DNA of 64,000 nucleotides from an archaeon (lineage in GTDB: Archaea; Iainarchaeota; Iainarchaeia; Iainarchaeales; 0-14-0-20-34-12): NCBI GenBank assembly GCA_038046645.1, contig JBBSVU010000014.1, positions 1,512-65,511 of the forward strand. Reading direction: 5' to 3'. Positions 1,506 through 13,190 of the stretch are shown piece after piece. Position numbers and translations under genes: made by a program. The notes under the pieces are model-generated. The model saw only the letters and a list, made by a program, of their open reading frames with translations. It was not told the origin of the DNA and did not search any database. Position 1 is the stretch's first letter. Each line of letters begins with the position of its first letter.

Positions 1506-2747
1506 ATGGAAAACATCAAAAAAACACACGGGAAAAAAACTAAGAAAGAATCAAAAATTTTTAAATTCAGCTTAAAGGATAAAAACACTCAATTTCTGCT
1601 TGTTGGCATTTTTATCATTGCGGTACTTGCAGTATTTGGCATAATAATTATGCAAACTAACCAATCGCCTGCGCCGGAAAAAACAGCGCAACAAACTGAA
1701 GAAGCAGCAAAGTTATTACTAACAGAAATAACATTGGATGATTGCAAAAAAAACAAATGCTTCTCACTTTCAAGCCTTGAGGAAGCAATAAAGAACACTG
1801 ACCTAAATGCAAAATATGAAACAAAAACTGTTCTGTATGATACTGAGGAAGGAAAAGCCCTTGTTAAAAAATATAATCTAACGAAATTGCCTACTTTGGT
1901 AATTAGTGGGGATTTGGATAAGGCTAAAGAATTAGAGTCGCAATGGTTAGCAGCAAATTTAGGGACAAAGGAAAGTGACAATTCATTAATTTTGAGAAAT
2001 ATCCCGAATGTAAGTTATGATATTGAGAAAAACAAATATTTGGGGCAGGTAAAAATGATTACTCTGAGTTTTAATGAATGCAAGGAATGTGCCCCTACTC
2101 CTAAACCAGAAAACTTTTCACAATTAGTTCCTCCTGTAACAATAATTGAGAATAAAAAAATAGATGCAACAACAGATGAAGGAAAAGAACTGATGCAGAA
2201 ATACAGCATTACTGCTGTTCCAACAATAATCCTTTCAAAAGAGATTGCAGAATATGAAACAATACTGCCAACTATGGGTGAGTTAGGGACAACTGAAAGC
2301 GATGGTTCTTTTGTGTTCAGGGAATCTGGATTGAATCCATTGTATTTCAGCCTAACCGAACAAAGATTAGTTGGATATGTGAAAGCATTTTACCTTATTG
2401 ATTCAAACTGCACAGCATGCCCCAGTCCTACAGACTTAAATGAGGCATTGAATACTGCTTTAGGATTTAAGATTGTTGAAAATAAATATGCAGACATAAA
2501 AGACCCAACAAACCTTAACACTGCCTTAAGCTGGGGCGTTACAAAAGTGCCTGCGGTTGTTTATGTCGGGGATGTAAATGCCTATTTTGTAGTGAAAAAG
2601 CTTTGGGATAAGCTAGGAATAGTGAAGGATGAGAAATATATCCTTACTAACCTTGATTTCCTGACAGGGATACAGTATGAGGATATTACTACATTGCCTA
2701 AGCAAACAGAGGTAAATGTTGGTGAATTAGTAGTAAATACCCAATAG
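1506..2747 (+). CDS. membrane-anchored protein with three tandem thioredoxin-fold-like repeats
   Basis: N-terminal TM (LLVGIFIIAVLAVFGIIIM). Three ~100-aa internal repeats each carry a Cys pair (CKKNKC, CKEC, CTAC) and a Trx-like cis-Pro strand motif (LTKLPTLVI, ITAVPTIIL, VTKVPAVVYV). GAGGGGG lies upstream of the ATG. Confidence 0.6.
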   Translation: MENIKKTHGKKTKKESKIFKFSLKDKNTQFLLVGIFIIAVLAVFGIIIMQTNQSPAPEKTAQQTEEAAKLLLTEITLDDCKKNKCFSLSSLEEAIKNTDLNAKYETKTVLYDTEEGKALVKKYNLTKLPTLVISGDLDKAKELESQWLAANLGTKESDNSLILRNIPNVSYDIEKNKYLGQVKMITLSFNECKECAPTPKPENFSQLVPPVTIIENKKIDATTDEGKELMQKYSITAVPTIILSKEIAEYETILPTMGELGTTESDGSFVFRESGLNPLYFSLTEQRLVGYVKAFYLIDSNCTACPSPTDLNEALNTALGFKIVENKYADIKDPTNLNTALSWGVTKVPAVVYVGDVNAYFVVKKLWDKLGIVKDEKYILTNLDFLTGIQYEDITTLPKQTEVNVGELVVNTQ

Positions 2748-3189: not shown

Positions 3190-4395
3190 ATGAACACAGA
3201 AAAAATCAGGCAGGATTTTGAAATATTGAAAAAAGGAATTATCTATTTTGACAATGCCTGCATGACCTTAAGGCCTAATCAAGTTATTGAGGAAATTTCC
3301 CGCTATTATAAAGAATTTCCATCATGCTCTGGAAGGTCAAACCATCAATTAGCGATAAAGGCAACAGAAGAATATGAAAGCGCGCGTGATAAGATAAGGC
3401 ATTTCATAAATGCAAAATCAGCTGATGAGATAATTCACACAAAGAACACTACTGAAGCAATTAATATTGTTGTAAATTCATTCCCTTTTGAGCAGGGAAA
3501 AGCAACCGTTTCAAGCGACAGGGAACATAACTCTAATCTGATTCCTTGGCAGTTTCTAGAAAAAGAAAAAGGCATTAAGCATGTGATTGTTGAATCAGAT
3601 GCAAATGAAGAATTCTCACTAAAGAATTTTGAAAATGCACTGCAGAACAACAATGTACAGATGGTTGCAATTCAGCATACAAGCAATATTGACGGATATA
3701 TTTTGCCGATTGAGAAAATAATCAAATTAGCTCATGATTTCAATGCTTATGTTTTTGTTGATGCAGCACAGGGTGCACCACATTCAAAGATAGATGTCAG
3801 GAAATTAGATGTTGATTTTTTGGCATTTTCAGGGCATAAGGCTTGTGGCCCATCTGGAACAGGCTGTTTATACGGCAAAAAAGAATTGCTGGACAAGATG
3901 CAACCTTTCATGTCAGGAGGGCATACTGCTTACAACTCAACATACACGACAGCAGAATTTGAGAAAGCACCGGCAAAATTTGAGGCAGGATTGCAGGATG
4001 TTGCAGGAATGTTAGGCTTTGGAAAAGCCTGTGAATATCTTGAAAAAATAGGCATGCAAAATATAGAAGAGCATGAAAGAAAACTGAACAAAATAATTAC
4101 TGAAAGATTGTCTGAGATTAAAGGCTTGAATATTATCGGGGTAAAAGACTGGAAGAAAAAATGCGGGATTACAAGTTTCAATGTAAATGGAATGGACATA
4201 TTTGATATTGCTATTTTGCTTGACAACACAAAGAAGATTGCGATAAGGGCGGGGATGCATTGTGCGCATTCATGGTTTAACAAACGCGGATTGAAAGGTT
4301 CGGCGAGAGCTTCTTTATATTTCTACAATACTGAAGAAGAAGCAAAGATATTCTGTGATGAATTGCGGGAGATAGTTAAAACCTTGGGCAAATAA
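3190..4395 (+). CDS. sufS: cysteine desulfurase, SufS/CsdA-like class V aminotransferase
   Basis: PLP-lysine motif FSGHKACGPSGTGCLYG and catalytic-Cys motif RAGMHCA, with HTSN and DAAQ motifs. 401 aa. Confidence 0.8.
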   Translation: MNTEKIRQDFEILKKGIIYFDNACMTLRPNQVIEEISRYYKEFPSCSGRSNHQLAIKATEEYESARDKIRHFINAKSADEIIHTKNTTEAINIVVNSFPFEQGKATVSSDREHNSNLIPWQFLEKEKGIKHVIVESDANEEFSLKNFENALQNNNVQMVAIQHTSNIDGYILPIEKIIKLAHDFNAYVFVDAAQGAPHSKIDVRKLDVDFLAFSGHKACGPSGTGCLYGKKELLDKMQPFMSGGHTAYNSTYTTAEFEKAPAKFEAGLQDVAGMLGFGKACEYLEKIGMQNIEEHERKLNKIITERLSEIKGLNIIGVKDWKKKCGITSFNVNGMDIFDIAILLDNTKKIAIRAGMHCAHSWFNKRGLKGSARASLYFYNTEEEAKIFCDELREIVKTLGK

Positions 4396-5665: not shown

Positions 5666-6724
5666 ATGGCTAAGGAAGTAAAAAATGAAGAAGTAAAAAA
5701 TGAAAAAAAATTCACAATAACTCCGATGGTTGGGATGCTATTGACAGTAATGCTTATTGTAGGAATTTTGCTGGGTGTTTGGTTAGGATTTACCTTAAAA
5801 CCAGCAGATGCAGGAACACAAACAAATCAAGATGACAAAACAAATGCTACGACAGTAAGCGAGGCAGATGTTAAGGATAAGGTCACAAAATACCTGAATG
5901 ATAATCTGCTAGAGGTTCAGGGAGTAACAGGCAGCATCAGTGAACTTGAAAAGATAGGAAATTCTTTATATAAATTAACTGTTGATATAAAAGAAAACGG
6001 TAAAACAACACAACAGGCACAGGTATATGCTACAGCAAATGCTGAAGAGATAATTATTGGGAGCTTAAATATATTGAAAACATCAGAACCTTTGCCAAAA
6101 CAAGATGAACCAATAGATCAAGTAGATACACAACCACAAGAATTGCCAAAAACTGATAAACCAGCTGCAGACTTATATATCTTCTCTTACTGTCCTGCTG
6201 GTTCAGCTGCATTGGATTCTTTTGCAAAGGCAGCAGAGGTGCTTGCAGATTCTGCTGATATAAAAGTAAAGTTCTTCAGCAACATGCATGGTGCCCACGA
6301 ACTTCAGCAGAACAAGATACAGGAATGCATTCAGGTTGTTGACAAAACCAACTACTGGAAATACGCGCAAAAGTTTGCATCAGATATTTACCCGTACTGC
6401 GGCAGCAAAAAAAGCGTTGATTGCGACAAGAATGAATCGATAAAACTAATGGATTCGCTTGGAATAAACTCAACCAATGTGTTTGACTGTGTTGAGAAAC
6501 AAGGAGAATTATTATACCAAGCAGACACTGAGGATGCAATCGCGCTGCAATTGCAATATTCACCTTCAGTCGTTGTCAATGGAGTTTATTTCGGCAATGC
6601 TGACAGGTCGCCTGAAGGATTAAAAACACTCATCTGCAGCGCATTCAACACTGCACCAACTGTTTGTAACACAACGCTAGGCGCAGATGCTGCATCAGCT
6701 AATGGCGGATGTGGGGCATCTTAA
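5666..6724 (+). CDS. membrane-anchored secreted protein with C-terminal DsbA-like thioredoxin-fold domain (CPAG in place of CxxC)
   Basis: N-terminal TM, a Pro/Gln/Asp-rich linker, then IFSYCPAGSAAL...HGAHELQQNKIQEC and several further Cys. The fold call comes from motif layout only. Confidence 0.45.
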   Translation: MAKEVKNEEVKNEKKFTITPMVGMLLTVMLIVGILLGVWLGFTLKPADAGTQTNQDDKTNATTVSEADVKDKVTKYLNDNLLEVQGVTGSISELEKIGNSLYKLTVDIKENGKTTQQAQVYATANAEEIIIGSLNILKTSEPLPKQDEPIDQVDTQPQELPKTDKPAADLYIFSYCPAGSAALDSFAKAAEVLADSADIKVKFFSNMHGAHELQQNKIQECIQVVDKTNYWKYAQKFASDIYPYCGSKKSVDCDKNESIKLMDSLGINSTNVFDCVEKQGELLYQADTEDAIALQLQYSPSVVVNGVYFGNADRSPEGLKTLICSAFNTAPTVCNTTLGADAASANGGCGAS

Positions 6725-6734
6725 GGTGAAAAAA

Positions 6735-6968
6735 ATGGCTAAAGTATTAGTGTATTCAACACCAACATGCCCTTTTTGCGAGCTTGTTAAAAAGTTCCTA
6801 AAAGAAAATAATGTAAAATATACGGAGATAAACGTTGCCAAGGATAAGGAAAAAATCAAAGAAATGATTACAAAAAGCGGGCAGACAAGTTTGCCTGTTG
6901 TTGACATAAACGGCAAGATTATCCTTGGTTTTAACAAAATTGAGATGAAAAAAGCCCTCAATCTTTAG
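6735..6968 (+). CDS. glutaredoxin/NrdH-like small redoxin (CPFC)
   Basis: MAKVLVYSTPTCPFCELVKKFL...SLPVVDINGKIILGF. ATG at 6735 inside the longer track ORF (6687), preceded by AAGGTGA. Confidence 0.85.
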   Translation: MAKVLVYSTPTCPFCELVKKFLKENNVKYTEINVAKDKEKIKEMITKSGQTSLPVVDINGKIILGFNKIEMKKALNL

Positions 6969-8587: not shown

Positions 8588-9460
8588 ATGGAAAGGGAGA
8601 TTGCAAAATTCGGCTATAACAAAGGTAAGCTGTTTGCACTTCTGGAACTTGGAAGGCCGTGGAATGCTGGAATTTTAGGGTTGTTTGCAATTATCGGCTT
8701 TCTGCTTGTAAAAAATGCAATTGAAATAAATGTAATATATGCTTTTTTCAGTTTTGTATTTCTCTACATGGCAGGCACAACAGTAAATGATATTTTTGGT
8801 TTAGAAACAGATAAAATAAACATTTCCGTAAGGCCGCTGCCTTCCGGGCGGGTTACATTAAAGGAAGCCTGGGCATACAGCATATTCTTCTATGCCTTGG
8901 GGCTGTCAGTATCTTATTTTGTTGGATTTTATTTTATGTTTTGGGCGCTCGCATTCTGCGTATTGAGTTTCCTGTATTCAATGAAGCCTATTTCACTGGA
9001 TTCCAAATGGTATTCAAAAAGCTTAGTTTTAGCGATTGTTACAGTATTTGTGCCTTTTAGCGGCGGTGCATCCATAATAAGCGGAAAAATAATCCAAGAA
9101 ATGGCAATAAATTATATAGGATTAGCAATGTCGGCATTCTTTCTTTTTATAGCAACAACAAATGACTTGAAGGATATGAAAGGGGATGCAGAAACTGGCA
9201 AGAAAACACTTGCCTTGCTGCTTGGTGAAAAAAAGACTATGCAAATAAGTGCATTCGGGTTAAGCATTTTTTTCCTGCTTACAAACTACATGCTGCTTAA
9301 TTACATAAAATACAGCCTAGCATTCATGGCCTTCTGCGTTATTATCTGGGCTATTTTAATAAGAAGATATTTTATTACTGAAAATAACGAGATGAAGTTT
9401 ACAAAAGCAAGGTTTACTGTGCTGGCATATGTCCTTGGGTTAATAGCCATGTTACTGTAA
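8588..9460 (+). CDS. UbiA-family prenyltransferase (DGGGP-synthase-like)
   Basis: Polytopic membrane protein with Asp-rich motifs NDIFGLETDKIN and NDLKDMKGDAETGKKT. Confidence 0.8.
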   Translation: MEREIAKFGYNKGKLFALLELGRPWNAGILGLFAIIGFLLVKNAIEINVIYAFFSFVFLYMAGTTVNDIFGLETDKINISVRPLPSGRVTLKEAWAYSIFFYALGLSVSYFVGFYFMFWALAFCVLSFLYSMKPISLDSKWYSKSLVLAIVTVFVPFSGGASIISGKIIQEMAINYIGLAMSAFFLFIATTNDLKDMKGDAETGKKTLALLLGEKKTMQISAFGLSIFFLLTNYMLLNYIKYSLAFMAFCVIIWAILIRRYFITENNEMKFTKARFTVLAYVLGLIAMLL

Positions 9461-9575
9461 TAACGTCTAAGAACCCACGCCTAAAGGTTGTTGATTTCTC
9501 GCTCCATTAAACTGCCTAACCTAAAGATTCGACTTTGATACTTAATAAAGGTCGGGTTATATTTACAAACATACT

Positions 9576-9585
9576 TTTTAAAATA
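9576..9585 (+). promoter_or_regulatory. TATA-box-like element for a leaderless GGR transcript
   Basis: TTTTAAAATA is centred ~27 nt upstream of the ATG at 9609. Confidence 0.4.
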
Positions 9586-9608
9586 AAGAACGATATAGGA
9601 TATAGTAT

Positions 9609-10655
9609 ATGGCAGAACTAATATCGCCTTCCTTAATTAAGGTAGGCTATGATGTAATTATAGCAGGGGTTGGCCCTGCTGGCTGCACACTTGCTGAAAA
9701 CCTTTCATCAAAATATAGGGTACTTATTGCAGATTATAGGTCATTGCCAAGGGAAAAACCATGCGGCGGCATGCTTGTTAGGGAAGCAAAAGAATTTGTG
9801 GACAAGAAAAAAATGCCTGCAGACATATTTGCTGGGCCAAAATACCTTGACATAAAGTATATGGACTGGAATAATGGCACTGAAACCTTAATTAAAAAAG
9901 GATTTTACAATATACACAGGGAAAAATTTGATGCCTGGCTTTTTCAGTCAATAAAAGCAAACAATGTGAACATAAGCGCAAATACTAAGCTAATTGATTA
10001 TTACCCAACAAAAAAGAAGAATTATGTTGTTGCAATTTTTTCTAGCGACGGTGAAATAAAAGGTGCGGTATGCAAATATCTTATAGGTTGTGATGGTGCA
10101 CTTTCCACAGTAAGAAACAAATTGACAAACACAAAAGTGCCGTACTACATAGCAATGCAGGAACTAATAGATAAAAAATTATGTGATGATGCTTATTTTA
10201 TCTTTGACAATTCAATAACTGATTTTTATTGCTGGGCAATACCAAAGGATGACAAAACATTAATCGGGGCAGCTATTCCACCGGAATCAGCAAGGGAAAG
10301 GTTTGAATTATTCAAAAATAAACTTTCAAAAAGAATGGGATGTACAAGTTTAAATGGCAGATTAAGCTCTGCACTTCTTTCAAGGCCAAACTCCATAAGG
10401 CAAACCTTTTTAGGTGATAAAAATGTTATGCTTGCTGGAGAAGCAGCTGGCTTGATAAGCCCAAGCAGTGGTGAAGGCATAAGCTTTGCGCAATACAGCG
10501 GATTTTATTGCGCTGAAGCAATAAATAAAGAGTATGAAAATGCACTTCCCTATTATAAGGAAAAATGCAAGCCATTGATTGAAAGGATTAGGGCAAAACT
10601 TAGAAAATCAGAAGCATTAAAAAATGTTGGAAAGCGACCTTATTTGTTAAAATAG
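9609..10655 (+). CDS. geranylgeranyl reductase-family FAD-dependent oxidoreductase
   Basis: FAD fingerprint DVIIAGVGPAGC, KPCGGML and GCDGALSTVR. Lies next to the UbiA prenyltransferase. Confidence 0.8.
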   Translation: MAELISPSLIKVGYDVIIAGVGPAGCTLAENLSSKYRVLIADYRSLPREKPCGGMLVREAKEFVDKKKMPADIFAGPKYLDIKYMDWNNGTETLIKKGFYNIHREKFDAWLFQSIKANNVNISANTKLIDYYPTKKKNYVVAIFSSDGEIKGAVCKYLIGCDGALSTVRNKLTNTKVPYYIAMQELIDKKLCDDAYFIFDNSITDFYCWAIPKDDKTLIGAAIPPESARERFELFKNKLSKRMGCTSLNGRLSSALLSRPNSIRQTFLGDKNVMLAGEAAGLISPSSGEGISFAQYSGFYCAEAINKEYENALPYYKEKCKPLIERIRAKLRKSEALKNVGKRPYLLK

Positions 10656-10711
10656 TTTGAATCTCTCATCAACAGAACATTAGTTATGGTTTTTCGGGCA
10701 AAATGCTAACC

Positions 10712-10921
10712 TTATTTTAAATGCCTTTGCCATTCAATCTTGTTCCATATCCTTTCATGGGCATAATAAAGCACAGTAGCCACTAAGGTAAAGGCTATTG
10801 TGATAAACGATGTTTCAAAAAGGTTGCCAGTATAAAACCATGATATGCCCGCTAGGGCTAAAGAAGCGAGCACTCGGTAAGTAATCGACTTGACCAAAGA
10901 ACGCTTGAATGAATCTTCCAT
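10712..10921 (-). CDS. DUF2061 family small membrane protein (paralog 1)
   Basis: KRSLVKSITYRVLASL...VLYYAHERIWNKIEW matches the DUF2061 signature as I recall it. Confidence 0.75.
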   Translation of the reverse strand: MEDSFKRSLVKSITYRVLASLALAGISWFYTGNLFETSFITIAFTLVATVLYYAHERIWNKIEWQRHLK

Positions 10922-11084
10922 AATTTCACGGCTTTTGAAAAATATATATGTAATAAAAGCACTGAATCTATATTAATATATCCCCAAAAATACGATTATT
11001 GACGTTATTTTATGCCTGCTAAAACCAAACCAATTAAAAGACTTGCTCCCTAATTTAGTATTCAAAATTAATGAGAGGGTTTTA

Positions 11085-11324
11085 ATGGCAAAAACTATGG
11101 TAATATTGGAAAAATTCAAATGTATTGGCTGCGGTACTTGTGCAGCACTATGCCCAGATTTTTGGGAGCTTGAAGATATGAAAGCAAAACTAAAAGGAAG
11201 CAAATTAAAAAATATTCCTGAAGGAGAGGTTGAAACGCTTGAAAAAGACTTGACTGATGATCAGGTAAAATGCAATAAGGATTGCGAACAAAATTGCCCT
11301 GTTGCATGCATAATAATAAAATAA
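11085..11324 (+). CDS. ferredoxin (single-cluster type)
   Basis: CIGCGTCAALCP motif plus a distal CEQNCPVAC. ATG at 11085 inside track ORF 11043. Confidence 0.8.
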   Translation: MAKTMVILEKFKCIGCGTCAALCPDFWELEDMKAKLKGSKLKNIPEGEVETLEKDLTDDQVKCNKDCEQNCPVACIIIK

Positions 11325-11377
11325 ACTCTTTTAAAGAAGCAGGGCTTTTAAGCCTTGCTGCAAATGTTTTGGTTAAT

Positions 11378-11674
11378 ATGGTTGATGAAAAATCGGTAAT
11401 GGATTCACTAAGGAATGTTTATGACCCTGAACTGGGCATAAACATTGTTGACCTTGGTTTTATTTATAAGATCGAAATAAATGAAGGCAGGGTAAATGTA
11501 AGAATGACATTTACAAGCCCACATTGCCCGTTAAGTGGAATGATAACTGACCAGGTAAAAGAAGCGGCCATAAAAGTTAACGGCGTTAAAGAAGTGAATG
11601 TTGAGCTTGTTTTTGATCCTCCTTGGAACCCAAGCATGATGAATTCTGAGATTAGAAAACAATTAGGGGTGTAA
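11378..11674 (+). CDS. DUF59/MIP18-family Fe-S assembly protein (SufT/PaaD-like)
   Basis: LRNVYDPELGINIVDLGFIY...TFTSPHCPLSGMI...DPPWNP. ATG at 11378 inside track ORF 11282. Confidence 0.8.
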   Translation: MVDEKSVMDSLRNVYDPELGINIVDLGFIYKIEINEGRVNVRMTFTSPHCPLSGMITDQVKEAAIKVNGVKEVNVELVFDPPWNPSMMNSEIRKQLGV

Positions 11675-11676
11675 TT

Positions 11677-12057
11677 ATGAATATTGGTTTGGGAATTGGA
11701 ATTATTATTGCGGTGATAATTATTGTAATTTCGGGTTTTGCAGTAATGGAAATGATTAAGCCTAAAGTAAGCAATGAAAAATTAGCTGAATTTGCGAAAT
11801 GCTTAACTGAAAAAGGCGCCAAGATGTATGGTGCTTACTGGTGCATGCACTGCAAAAGCCAAAAAGAAGAATTTGGGGATGCTTTCCAGTACATAAACTA
11901 TGTTGAATGTGATTTAGGCGGAGGAAAAACAGCACAGGAATGCATTGAAAAAGGCATAGATGGCTATCCTAAATGGATAATCAATGAAAAAAAGTATGAT
12001 GGCAAGCAGACCTTCCAGGAATTAGCACAGGCAAGCGGCTGTGAATTAAAACAATAG
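11677..12057 (+). CDS. membrane-anchored thioredoxin-like protein of the VKOR-associated type (CMHC)
   Basis: One N-terminal TM, then GAKMYGAYWCMHCKSQKEEFG...YVEC...GIDGYPKWII...LAQASG. This is the motif set of the Trx-like domain fused to bacterial VKOR homologs. Confidence 0.8.
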   Translation: MNIGLGIGIIIAVIIIVISGFAVMEMIKPKVSNEKLAEFAKCLTEKGAKMYGAYWCMHCKSQKEEFGDAFQYINYVECDLGGGKTAQECIEKGIDGYPKWIINEKKYDGKQTFQELAQASGCELKQ

Positions 12058-12085
12058 AATTTAAATAATTCAAAAAAGTTCGAAT

Positions 12086-12295
12086 CTATTTTGGGTGCCT
12101 TTGCCATCCTGTTTTATTCCATATGCGTTCATGAATATAATAAATTACAATAGCCACAATAGTAAAAACAACTGTAATAAGAGAAGTTTCAAACAGATTC
12201 CTTGTGAAAAACCAGGATATTATGGCTAAAGCCAATGATGCAAGTATTCTGTAGGTAATTGCTTTTACCAGAGAGCGTTTATGTGAATCTTTCAT
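12086..12295 (-). CDS. DUF2061 family small membrane protein (paralog 2)
   Basis: MKDSHKRSLVKAITYRILASL...IYYIHERIWNKTGW is collinear with 10712..10921. The Met at 12295 aligns with the paralog's start (track ORF begins at 12310). Confidence 0.75.
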   Translation of the reverse strand: MKDSHKRSLVKAITYRILASLALAIISWFFTRNLFETSLITVVFTIVAIVIYYIHERIWNKTGWQRHPK

Positions 12296-12343
12296 AAATA
12301 TTTTCCACACTTGCTTGATTAAAATAAAATATAAAAAGAAGAA

Positions 12344-12415
12344 TTACTTCTTCTTTTTCTTGCCTTTCTTTGCTTTTGGCTTCTTTTTAACTTCACCGCA
12401 ACAACAACATGGCAT
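12344..12415 (-). CDS. 23-aa micro-ORF MPCCCCGEVKKKPKAKKGKKKKK (not in the ORF track)
   Basis: ATG at 12415 preceded by GGAGGT with 7-nt spacing. Lies between two co-oriented genes (12525..13190 and 12086..12295). Four consecutive Cys followed by a poly-Lys tail. Confidence 0.4.
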   Translation of the reverse strand: MPCCCCGEVKKKPKAKKGKKKKK

Positions 12416-12524
12416 AAAATTACCTCCAAAAATTAAGATATACTAGATTAGTTTTATGGTTATTTAAATATATAGTTACAAAAATGCAAAAAAAATTGAG
12501 TTATTTGCAAAACTGCGAGATAAG

Positions 12525-13190
12525 TTATTGTTTATTTTCCAAAACAAATTGTTTTAATGTTTCGGCAGACATTTCACCGCAAACAGCTTTTTTTGTTTTC
12601 ATTGAATAGAATGCCGGAACACCCAAAAGGCCGCAATCTCGCGTAATGTCATCAGCATGCAAAGACATTATCTGCTGATTTTTTTCATCATGCCATATCT
12701 CTCGCTTATCAAAAACATAACCTGTTTCTTTTTCCACTTCCAAAACAATAGGGGCCATTTTTTTGCAGTGCGGACATTCTGCCCCATAAAACTCTACAAA
12801 TGCAGCATTAATATCACATACTATTACATCTCCTTGCAACTTCTGCACTGTTGAAATAGGGCAATTTTCCGGGTGCTGCGGGTCACATGTGCCAAATACT
12901 ATTAAATTGTAAGCACCTATTGCGGTGTAAACAGAACTGGCAATCATCAAAACTAGCAAAATCCAAGATAAAATTTCAAAATGTTCGTTTACAAAATGCG
13001 CTAATCCTTTATGCCTCTTGAATATATGCGCAGTAACACTTGCCCTTATTTTTTTATCCAATGATGAATCGCACGGCTTAAACATAAGCCTTTTCGTAAC
13101 GCATCCAAAGGATTCCTTGGCCAGTTTTCTGTATTTAACAGAAAAAATTCCAAGAATTGCAAAAACAAAAAATGCAATAATACAAATCAT
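12525..13190 (-). CDS. 2-TM membrane protein with C-terminal thioredoxin domain (CPHC) and extra Cys pairs
   Basis: TM1 at the N-terminus, a basic loop with C-x9-C (CVTKRLMFKPC), TM2, C-x7-C (CDPQHPENC), then the Trx domain FVEFYGAECPHCKKMAP...GVPAFY. Confidence 0.6.
   Translation of the reverse strand: MICIIAFFVFAILGIFSVKYRKLAKESFGCVTKRLMFKPCDSSLDKKIRASVTAHIFKRHKGLAHFVNEHFEILSWILLVLMIASSVYTAIGAYNLIVFGTCDPQHPENCPISTVQKLQGDVIVCDINAAFVEFYGAECPHCKKMAPIVLEVEKETGYVFDKREIWHDEKNQQIMSLHADDITRDCGLLGVPAFYSMKTKKAVCGEMSAETLKQFVLENKQ

Follow-up and report, generated by a model that had tools for sequence, protein, structure and literature searches.

The window analysed here is a 64,000-nucleotide stretch of contig C14 in a 25-contig, 1.17-Mb assembly (G+C ~35%, estimated 89% complete) of a small DPANN archaeon, whose closest homologs are named by their sources as Candidatus Diapherotrites, Micrarchaeota, and Nanoarchaeia. 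It carries a group of redox genes on both strands, and here we report on one of them, which encodes a 221-aa protein with a C-terminal thioredoxin (Trx) domain behind a membrane module of two transmembrane (TM) helices and five conserved cysteines. We found that this module defines an unannotated protein family, that it is repeatedly fused to predicted exported Trx and DsbA domains, and that in many genomes its gene adjoins one for a SufS-type cysteine desulfurase. The ferredoxin, DUF59, DUF2061, and VKOR-type Trx (vTrx) genes next to it are ordinary members of known families (Table 1). All open reading frames (ORFs) listed in an earlier note on this DNA were recovered at the same positions, and its family assignments agree with Pfam: the DUF2061 paralogs score 46.5 and 46.2 bits (curated cut-off 23.1), FeS_assembly_P 82.4 bits (23.5), and Fer4 36.5 bits (22.4), all of which pass.

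The region would hold two units of an extracytoplasmic thiol-disulfide toolkit, i.e., a plus-strand unit running from ferredoxin through DUF59/SufT to vTrx, and a minus-strand unit running from the 221-aa gene through a CCCC micro-ORF to DUF2061 paralog b. A scan of the region for promoters and terminators gave matches at chance level, with a bacterial consensus that is ill-suited to an archaeon.

Table 1. Features of the window, with CCCC micro-ORFs of two further loci (last two lines).
Feature	Position	Strand	Match or remark
p413, TM-anchored, several Trx-like regions and CxxC-type motifs	1506-2747	+	weak Thioredoxin_2/_3/_8 matches
SufS-type cysteine desulfurase	3190-4395	+	TIGR01979 sufS, E 5e-126
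p352, TM-anchored exported Cys-containing protein	5666-6724	+	fold without database match
Glutaredoxin	6720-6968		
DUF2061 paralog a, small, 2 TM helices	10712-10921	-	PF09834, E 5e-12
Ferredoxin, small, single-4Fe-4S-cluster type, first gene of plus-strand unit	11085-11324	+	Fer4_15, E 8e-9; Fer4_13, E 5e-6
DUF59 (FeS_assembly_P), SufT-like	11384-11674	+	PF01883, E 2.9e-23
vTrx, 126-aa TM-anchored VKOR-type Trx, CMHC	11677-12057	+	E 2.7e-24 to 3KP8
DUF2061 paralog b	12086-12310	-	PF09834, E 6e-12; co-oriented with micro-ORF and module-Trx gene
CCCC micro-ORF MPCCCCGEVKKKPKAKKGKKKKK	12344-12415	-	between module-Trx gene and DUF2061 b
221-aa module-Trx protein, whole gene	12525-13190	-	
221-aa protein, linker and C-terminal Trx domain (CPHC)	12525-12854	-	predicted extracytoplasmic
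221-aa protein, N-terminal 2-TM five-Cys module	12855-13190	-	residues 1-112
CCCC micro-ORF, locus L009	1002-1070	-	
CCCC micro-ORF, locus L048	5318-5389	-	

A two-helix, five-cysteine module in front of thioredoxin-fold domains

The 221-aa protein begins with TM1 (residues 2-18), continues with a basic cytoplasmic loop (19-70) and TM2 (71-100), and emerges on the external side ahead of its Trx domain. The cysteine motifs read in the earlier note are all present, i.e., C30-x9-C40 in the loop, C102-x7-C110 after TM2, and CPHC in the Trx domain, and to these we add C3 in TM1, which had not been listed. Its 72 close homologs (E ≤ 1e-3) share the first ~112 residues and differ after them. A profile of the module (E ≤ 1e-3; 50%-identity clusters, 1.8 billion representatives) retrieves 341 clusters, in all of which the module occupies the N-terminus. 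The 221-aa protein aligns with all 114 profile positions (E 7.5e-52) with its five cysteines in register, the last pair being spaced C102-x(5-9)-C110 in the family. In alignments of 35-148 homologs, C3, C30, C40, C102, and C110 are invariant or more than 90% conserved.

What follows the module varies. A DsbA-type domain (Thioredoxin_4/DSBA) is fused to it in 84 of the 148 best representatives (57%), and the others carry Trx-CPHC or stand alone; the corresponding proteins are ~300 aa (DsbA-type, PF13462/PF01323), ~220 aa (Trx-CPHC), and ~130-170 aa (short tail) long. Where the module stands alone, separate Trx/DsbA-like genes often lie next to it. The non-canonical composition that the earlier note saw in the 221-aa protein is borne out in this form: the part with two TM helices and several cysteines is conserved as a module and has been fused repeatedly to exported DsbA/Trx, a pattern expected of a redox partner. 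Many stand-alone modules (e.g., P0049, P0057, P0128, P0129, P0160, and P0201) end in a mini-domain of ~40 residues with ~10 cysteines, in a pattern like CGSEHC..GC.C......C..PD...C.GNC.C....C, and others have a third TM helix at their end.

The Trx domain of the 221-aa protein is a regular member of its fold. It passes PF00085 (24.1 bits, cut-off 23.5), has PDI a-type domains as its best PDB sequence matches, carries CPHC, and is matched by Foldseek to classical thioredoxins with a TM-score of ~0.6 on the target over ~94 columns. For the module there is no Pfam model (matches at E ≤ 1 are scattered noise) and no NCBIfam model; its profile has no match among PDB sequences at E ≤ 10, Foldseek of a module-only AlphaFold2 model against PDB likewise gave none at E ≤ 10, and with the model of the full 221-aa protein only the Trx domain was matched. 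AlphaFold2 models the full protein with a mean pLDDT of 86, the isolated module with 74, and the Trx domain with 95-98, and places helices at 2-16 (TM1), 21-35, 43-59, and 61-69 (all amphipathic), and 71-99 (a long TM2), after which the Trx fold begins. Searches of full-text literature turned up no paper on the module. The family is unannotated, and its proteins are at present named only 'thioredoxin family' or 'DsbA family'.

The topology is predicted from charge statistics and from homologs. In 203 full modules, K+R outnumber D+E in the loop (12.5 vs 3.6 on average), and the balance is reversed in the 50-residue stretch behind TM2 (2.2 vs 5.8); 57% of module tails contain an N-x-S/T sequon; and in one homolog (P0065) the same Trx domain sits behind a lipoprotein-type leader in place of the module. 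C3, C102, C110, and the CPHC domain are thus predicted to face the outside and C30 and C40 the cytoplasm. The export of the Trx domains, as proposed earlier, is favored by these statistics and by the signal or lipoprotein leaders that homologs carry.

One could object that the module is a conserved anchor or oligomerization element, held by a structural external disulfide and with a cytoplasmic loop that binds Zn or Fe-S or is regulatory. The fused Trx/DsbA would then be oxidized non-enzymatically or by polysulfide or oxygen, and the adjacency to SufS described below would be co-regulation or inherited gene order. The low number of helices (two) and the lack of a cysteine within the membrane, which leave no obvious relay path, are in favor of such an anchor, and it is known that polysulfide alone oxidizes DsbA (PMC11921322). 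The conservation of the module speaks otherwise. In DsbA fusions, pairwise identity is 47% for the module vs 28% for the DsbA domain; TM1 of the Trx fusions is 66% identical (Trx domain 62%), vs 21% for the simple TM anchor of the vTrx family (vTrx domain 55%). These values argue that the module is not a plain anchor, and the five invariant cysteines are moreover spread over both faces of the membrane. We consider the anchor explanation unlikely, though it keeps a real share of the probability.

Linkage to SufS and absence of the known membrane partners

The strongest association of the module had been overlooked: the earlier note pointed to Trx-fold proteins at 1.5-7 kb of the window, which are real (p413 and the glutaredoxin), and passed over the SufS gene that lies among them. 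We surveyed 215 species genomes of the phylum (79 genera), including one of the same genus (G008) and one of the same family (G009, 94% complete). By comparison of coordinates with homologs of the window SufS, SufS adjoins the module, directly or nearly so, in at least 26 of the 86 module genomes and in 11 of the 20 module families. In most pairs the two genes share a strand and are 20-150 bp apart, and the orders module-SufS, SufS-module, and convergent are all seen. On all three contigs examined outside the phylum set, which source names or metagenome origin assign to other DPANN groups, a ~400-aa Aminotran_5 gene lies beside the module or one gene away. When 85 SufS sequences were placed in a tree, 26 of the 27 copies next to a module gene grouped in one 54-row clade (SH-aLRT 99), to which the window SufS belongs as well; in the 11 genomes with two SufS paralogs, the module-adjacent copy is always of that clade. 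Only two module genomes are without any desulfurase, both of them incomplete assemblies. If the module were an anchor with SufS beside it by inherited order, it is hard to see why the linkage survives rearrangement, recurs across DPANN-named contigs, and concerns one SufS paralog only. Full-text literature searches found no description of a SufS-DsbA link.

Other genes of the window recur next to the module. Homologs of p413, a protein with weak Pfam/NCBIfam matches in at least two Trx-like regions and three CxxC/Cx4C motifs read by eye, adjoin it at three loci (L024, L026, and L031). Homologs of p352, for which there is no significant match to Pfam or NCBIfam families or to PDB, adjoin it at L001/L002, L005, L010, and L023, and at L001 a ferredoxin gene also lies beside the SufS-module pair. 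Because p413, p352, and the glutaredoxin, i.e., recurrent neighbors of the module, lie between and around SufS and the module gene here, the redox island of the window is a loosened version of a neighborhood that is tight elsewhere.

Two further arrangements were seen. At L015 925-2838 (G150), two module-DsbA fusion genes stand in tandem, followed by a glutaredoxin gene. In family f13 (e.g., G095:C40:11299-19196, G097:C51:11773-18284, and G100:C43:27003-33732), a second SufS paralog consistently lies ~5 kb away from two non-fused DsbA-type genes in tandem; this second SufS clade is never module-adjacent, and both SufS lineages are thus found near exported oxidoreductase genes.

The identification of the 126-aa protein as a VKOR-type Trx holds up well. 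Besides its match to 3KP8, the Trx-like domain of Synechococcus VKOR, over vTrx residues 40-125, it matches residues 189-280 of 3KP9/4NV2 (E 7.5e-24). CMHC is present, C42, C78, C89, and C122 are conserved in the family, and there are six conserved cysteines in all. The family comprises 51 stand-alone homologs of ~120-135 aa, source-named as DPANN archaea and Patescibacteria; many have basic N-termini or lipobox-like leaders, which indicates that the family is exported. The membrane partner of such a domain was reported missing from the window, and this extends to the whole assembly, where VKOR (PF07884), DsbB (PF02600), and CcdA/DsbD (PF02683) have no match at E ≤ 1 and MauE (PF07291) has only a chance-level one (E 0.22), which falls within a 656-aa frame of a different contig. 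Neither VKOR nor DsbB was found in G008 or G009. A canonical VKOR with conserved linkage to these genes, which the earlier note had named as the finding that would overturn its view, does exist in relatives, and this genome is not among them: each of the 10 genomes encoding the two has VKOR immediately beside vTrx, nine of them from genus g73/family f32 and the tenth being G083 (examples are G188, G191, G179, G195, and G083). Because VKOR adjoins vTrx in every relative having both, the vTrx here is an orphan of the canonical VKOR pair and not a new kind of Trx; it is homologous to the VKOR-associated Trx-like domain and is neither fused nor adjacent to VKOR here, in G008, or in G009.

It is conceivable that a canonical VKOR, DsbB, or MauE is encoded in the ~11% of the genome that was not assembled and works with vTrx as usual. 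The incompleteness of the assembly and the VKOR gene adjoining vTrx in the f32 relatives and G083 would allow this. Both flanks of vTrx are assembled here, however, and hold DUF59 and DUF2061; VKOR is missing from G008 and G009 as well, and none of the 215 genomes has DsbB. We therefore regard a hidden generator of a known kind as very improbable.

Does the module then serve vTrx, as the earlier note had suggested as one option for the 2-TM multi-Cys protein? We found nothing that links the two specifically. Among the VKOR-less genomes with vTrx, 11 of 23 carry the module, vs a base rate of 43%, i.e., there is no enrichment, and no conserved partner stands beside vTrx in 20 loci from VKOR-less genomes. 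Most plausibly the module serves its own fused CPHC domain. A second vTrx-like gene on another contig (C6:63190-63666, minus strand) was considered as a redox partner and rejected: its active site is degenerate (WSKHT) with loss of CxxC, and by its sequence it is probably a redox-inactive paralog.

The VKOR-type Trx domain is also found in longer proteins. It is the N-terminal domain of surface proteins of 390-450 aa (L054 2404-3575, L055 1644-2990, and L056 3095-4393) and the C-terminal domain of anchored proteins of ~280 aa whose site is CGYT, with one cysteine (L057-L060). In G114, a gene for such a CGYT-type ~280-aa anchored protein lies directly 3' of a stand-alone module gene.

Across the survey, the module occurs in 86 of the 215 genomes and in 40 of the 79 genera, mostly stand-alone or fused to DsbA, and the Trx-fused form is confined to the genus of the window. 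VKOR scores above the cut-off in 13 genomes. No genome has both VKOR and the module (0 of 13, vs ~5 expected; Fisher p = 0.002), an exclusivity that is suggestive only, as it rests on about three VKOR lineages. Of the 139 genomes that encode DsbA-type domains, 64 carry the module, 12 carry VKOR, and 63 have neither, indicating that the module is the commonest candidate partner of DsbA-type proteins in the phylum and is not a universal one. To those who would see in the module an anchor, the 63 genomes without a known membrane partner may mean that partner-free oxidation is normal in this phylum.

That disulfides are made outside these cells is indicated by the proteome. From simple ORF calls, which account for 90% of the genome, we compared Cys-containing proteins predicted to be exported or N-terminally anchored with cytoplasmic ones. 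The cysteine count is even in 68 of 95 exported proteins (72%) and in 290 of 626 cytoplasmic ones (46%; Fisher p = 5e-6). An even-cysteine bias in exported proteins is a comparative-genomics sign of oxidative folding. Extracytoplasmic disulfides are therefore made and an oxidative pathway is needed, though no known generator is encoded.

A candidate membrane redox partner and its alternatives

We tentatively propose that the module acts in the membrane as a new redox partner for exported Trx/DsbA domains, in cis and coupled to SufS, and that it is the best candidate for the DsbB/VKOR gap; on the sequence evidence, we give this reading a little less than an even chance. The external CPHC domain would exchange disulfides with exported proteins and would itself be recycled in cis by the external cysteines, i.e., C102/C110 and, where TM1 meets the outside, C3. 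The cytoplasmic C30/C40 pair would couple this chemistry to a cytoplasmic partner, for which gene linkage points to the SufS-type desulfurase. The direction would most likely be oxidative, i.e., the module would be a functional stand-in for DsbB/VKOR.

Several points weigh against this proposal, and it is not our intention to hide them. The redox role is read from fusions and gene context. The module has two helices only and no intramembrane cysteine, and to our knowledge no known thiol-disulfide relay could pass electrons between C30/C40 and the external cysteines. The exclusivity with VKOR is drawn from only about three lineages, and the 63 of 139 DsbA-type genomes that have neither module nor VKOR tell against a universal partner. 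Beyond this genus, vTrx and the module are linked neither in phyletic distribution nor in position. SufS is near-ubiquitous (160 of 215 genomes), so its co-occurrence with the module is by itself uninformative, and in the window the two genes are not adjacent: SufS lies 8.1 kb from the module gene and on the other strand.

Among known systems, the VKOR-Trx arrangement (Synechococcus 3KP9/4NV2/3KP8; MdbA-VKOR in Actinobacteria) is a close one. The 126-aa vTrx is truly homologous in sequence to the Trx-like domain attached to VKOR, the 221-aa protein is also a membrane part joined to an exported CxxC Trx-fold domain, and module and VKOR never co-occur in the phylum. VKOR is a four-helix bundle whose last helix bears the CxxC and whose loop cysteine pair is on the outer side. 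However, the module has two helices instead of four, no membrane CxxC, no likeness to VKOR in sequence or fold, and two of its conserved cysteines in the cytoplasm; it has no evident quinone site, its genetic partner is a cysteine desulfurase, and the 221-aa protein has no match to the VKOR profile (PF07884). DsbB-DsbA of Escherichia coli, BdbC-BdbD of Bacillus subtilis, and MauE offer the likeness that a membrane protein would keep an exported DsbA-type protein oxidized, DsbA-type domains being the commonest fusion partner of the module. DsbB and MauE, in contrast, are quinone-linked multi-helix proteins whose active cysteines are all outside; the module is unrelated to them in sequence and lacks the CXC active site of MauE. 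A MauE pathway was proposed only recently (bioRxiv 10.64898/2026.03.05.709764), and gaps in disulfide pathways are still being filled.

The electrons could also flow the other way. The module would then be a minimal analog of CcdA/DsbD that takes reducing power from glutaredoxin, thioredoxin, or ferredoxin and, via the exported Trx/DsbA, repairs or shuffles disulfides or reduces oxidized surface proteins. Like CcdA/DsbD, the module has cysteines on both sides of the membrane (a cytoplasmic pair and an external set) and is tied to an exported Trx-fold domain, while CcdA/DsbD itself is absent from the genome. A glutaredoxin gene lies nearby here and beside the module at L015, a ferredoxin gene lies nearby here and at L001, and in G168 vTrx occurs in an oxidative-stress context with rubrerythrin, desulfoferrodoxin, and Ogg. 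But CcdA has six helices, two intramembrane cysteines, and alternating access, whereas the module has two helices, no intramembrane cysteine, and no match to PF02683. The fused domains are of the DsbA type or Trx-CPHC and not of the TlpA/ResA/CcmG type; CPHC is an oxidizing dipeptide motif, and the TlpA/ResA/CcmG type is the usual one in reductive pathways. The missing overlap with VKOR suits an analog of an oxidase better, and a reductive or isomerase path leaves the linkage to SufS unexplained. Such a path is, in our opinion, rather unlikely.

A different kind of cargo can be imagined as well, i.e., a thiophilic ligand such as sulfane sulfur, persulfide, or a soft metal, handed across the membrane to or from SufS in the manner of MerT/MerF/MerE. 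Small Mer transporters of 2-3 TM helices move Hg(II) via cysteine pairs with an exported CxxC partner (PMC5715351), and the Mer set (with MerP) resembles the system described here in its tiny membrane proteins with cysteine pairs, its exported CxxC protein, and its cytoplasmic Cys-bearing enzyme. The module likewise has cysteines on both faces, its helices have conserved small or polar residues (G14, S17, S75, S85, Y88, and N95), and SufS is a persulfide-carrying enzyme. What defines the Mer transporters is nevertheless missing: they have a vicinal cysteine pair inside TM1, whereas the module has the single C3 at the outer end of TM1 and no vicinal or intramembrane pair. There is no sequence likeness and no Mer family match, no mer genes lie nearby, and no metal genes stand beside the module in the loci examined. 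We think a ligand relay quite unlikely.

The SufS-module pair also resembles SufS with its sulfur acceptors SufE, SufU, and CsdE, in that a type II desulfurase is encoded beside a small Cys-bearing partner. Here, the difference is that the partner spans the membrane, carries its redox domain on the outside, and has no likeness to SufE, SufU, or TusA. The module-Trx protein is a previously undescribed form of the arrangement of a membrane partner with an exported oxidoreductase, and any transfer of persulfide between SufS and the module is putative. Under anaerobic conditions, sulfane sulfur or polysulfide oxidizes both DsbA and Trx, and it also rescues E. coli cells deleted for dsbB (PMC11921322), which makes sulfane sulfur a chemically credible oxidant. 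In the most far-reaching version, SufS and the module would generate disulfides free of quinone and oxygen, with SufS sulfur (or a C30/C40 disulfide) as the terminal two-electron acceptor: zero-valent sulfur from cysteine would pass to C30/C40, along or through the module to the external cysteines, and from there to Trx/DsbA, with release of H2S. We rate this version improbable because no path across the membrane is evident. If true, it would explain disulfide-rich surface proteins in fermentative, quinone-less DPANN cells in anoxic water.

Whichever chemistry applies, DPANN archaea carry surface proteins rich in cysteine and their disulfide generator is a gap, as almost none of these genomes encode DsbB, VKOR, or MauE and quinones are lacking. 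The module is a concrete candidate for it, found in about 300 clusters and in 40% of the genomes of the phylum, strongly conserved, and with a specific genetic partner in SufS. The family also corrects annotation practice, in which the membrane half of 'thioredoxin/DsbA family' proteins is currently ignored.

DUF2061 paralogs, DUF59, and a CCCC micro-ORF

The earlier note had described the redox genes as framed by two DUF2061 paralogs. The two genes do flank the ferredoxin-DUF59-vTrx operon on the opposite strand, and the frame is an incidental local duplication. Paralogs a and b are 75% identical as proteins and 72% identical in DNA over 211 nt; the likeness is confined to the coding part, the flanking DNA is not repeated, and both genes are on the minus strand. 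With only the coding parts alike, we ruled out that the pair marks the ends of a mobile element. DUF2061 was also rejected as a part of the redox system, for it is linked to redox genes only in this genus. In a relative, the closest homolog of paralog a is separated from a UbiA-GGR pair by ~1.7 kb and three unrelated genes, and the redox genes are missing there. In the window, a UbiA prenyltransferase, a GGR-type FAD reductase, and DUF2061 occupy 8588-10921, and the same trio lies within a few kb at L143 574-4504, a stretch without ferredoxin-DUF59-vTrx genes. This joint occurrence without them in a relative suggests that, in this genus, the ferredoxin-DUF59-vTrx genes were inserted beside a duplicated DUF2061. 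Among distant homologs of DUF2061, one bears the source name adenylylsulfate kinase.

DUF59 and vTrx are closely coupled here, the DUF59 stop codon standing 2 nt before the vTrx start and a GGGGTG Shine-Dalgarno-like motif standing ahead of the vTrx ATG. The two genes are also adjacent in G008 and in G178; in G178 (L051 2730-3443), which belongs to a second family of the phylum, the DUF59/FeS_assembly_P gene is divergent beside the vTrx gene.

The micro-ORF MPCCCCGEVKKKPKAKKGKKKKK has 23 codons, which encode M-P-CCCC and then a poly-Lys tail, with GGAGGT 7 nt upstream, and both the ORF and its Shine-Dalgarno motif are kept in the genus mate G008. A similar CCCC/Lys-rich micro-ORF, MGGDCCCCGAEKKPVKKPVKKEK, heads a string of rubrerythrin, desulfoferrodoxin, Ogg, a 96-aa protein, and vTrx in G168, a genome of a different family.

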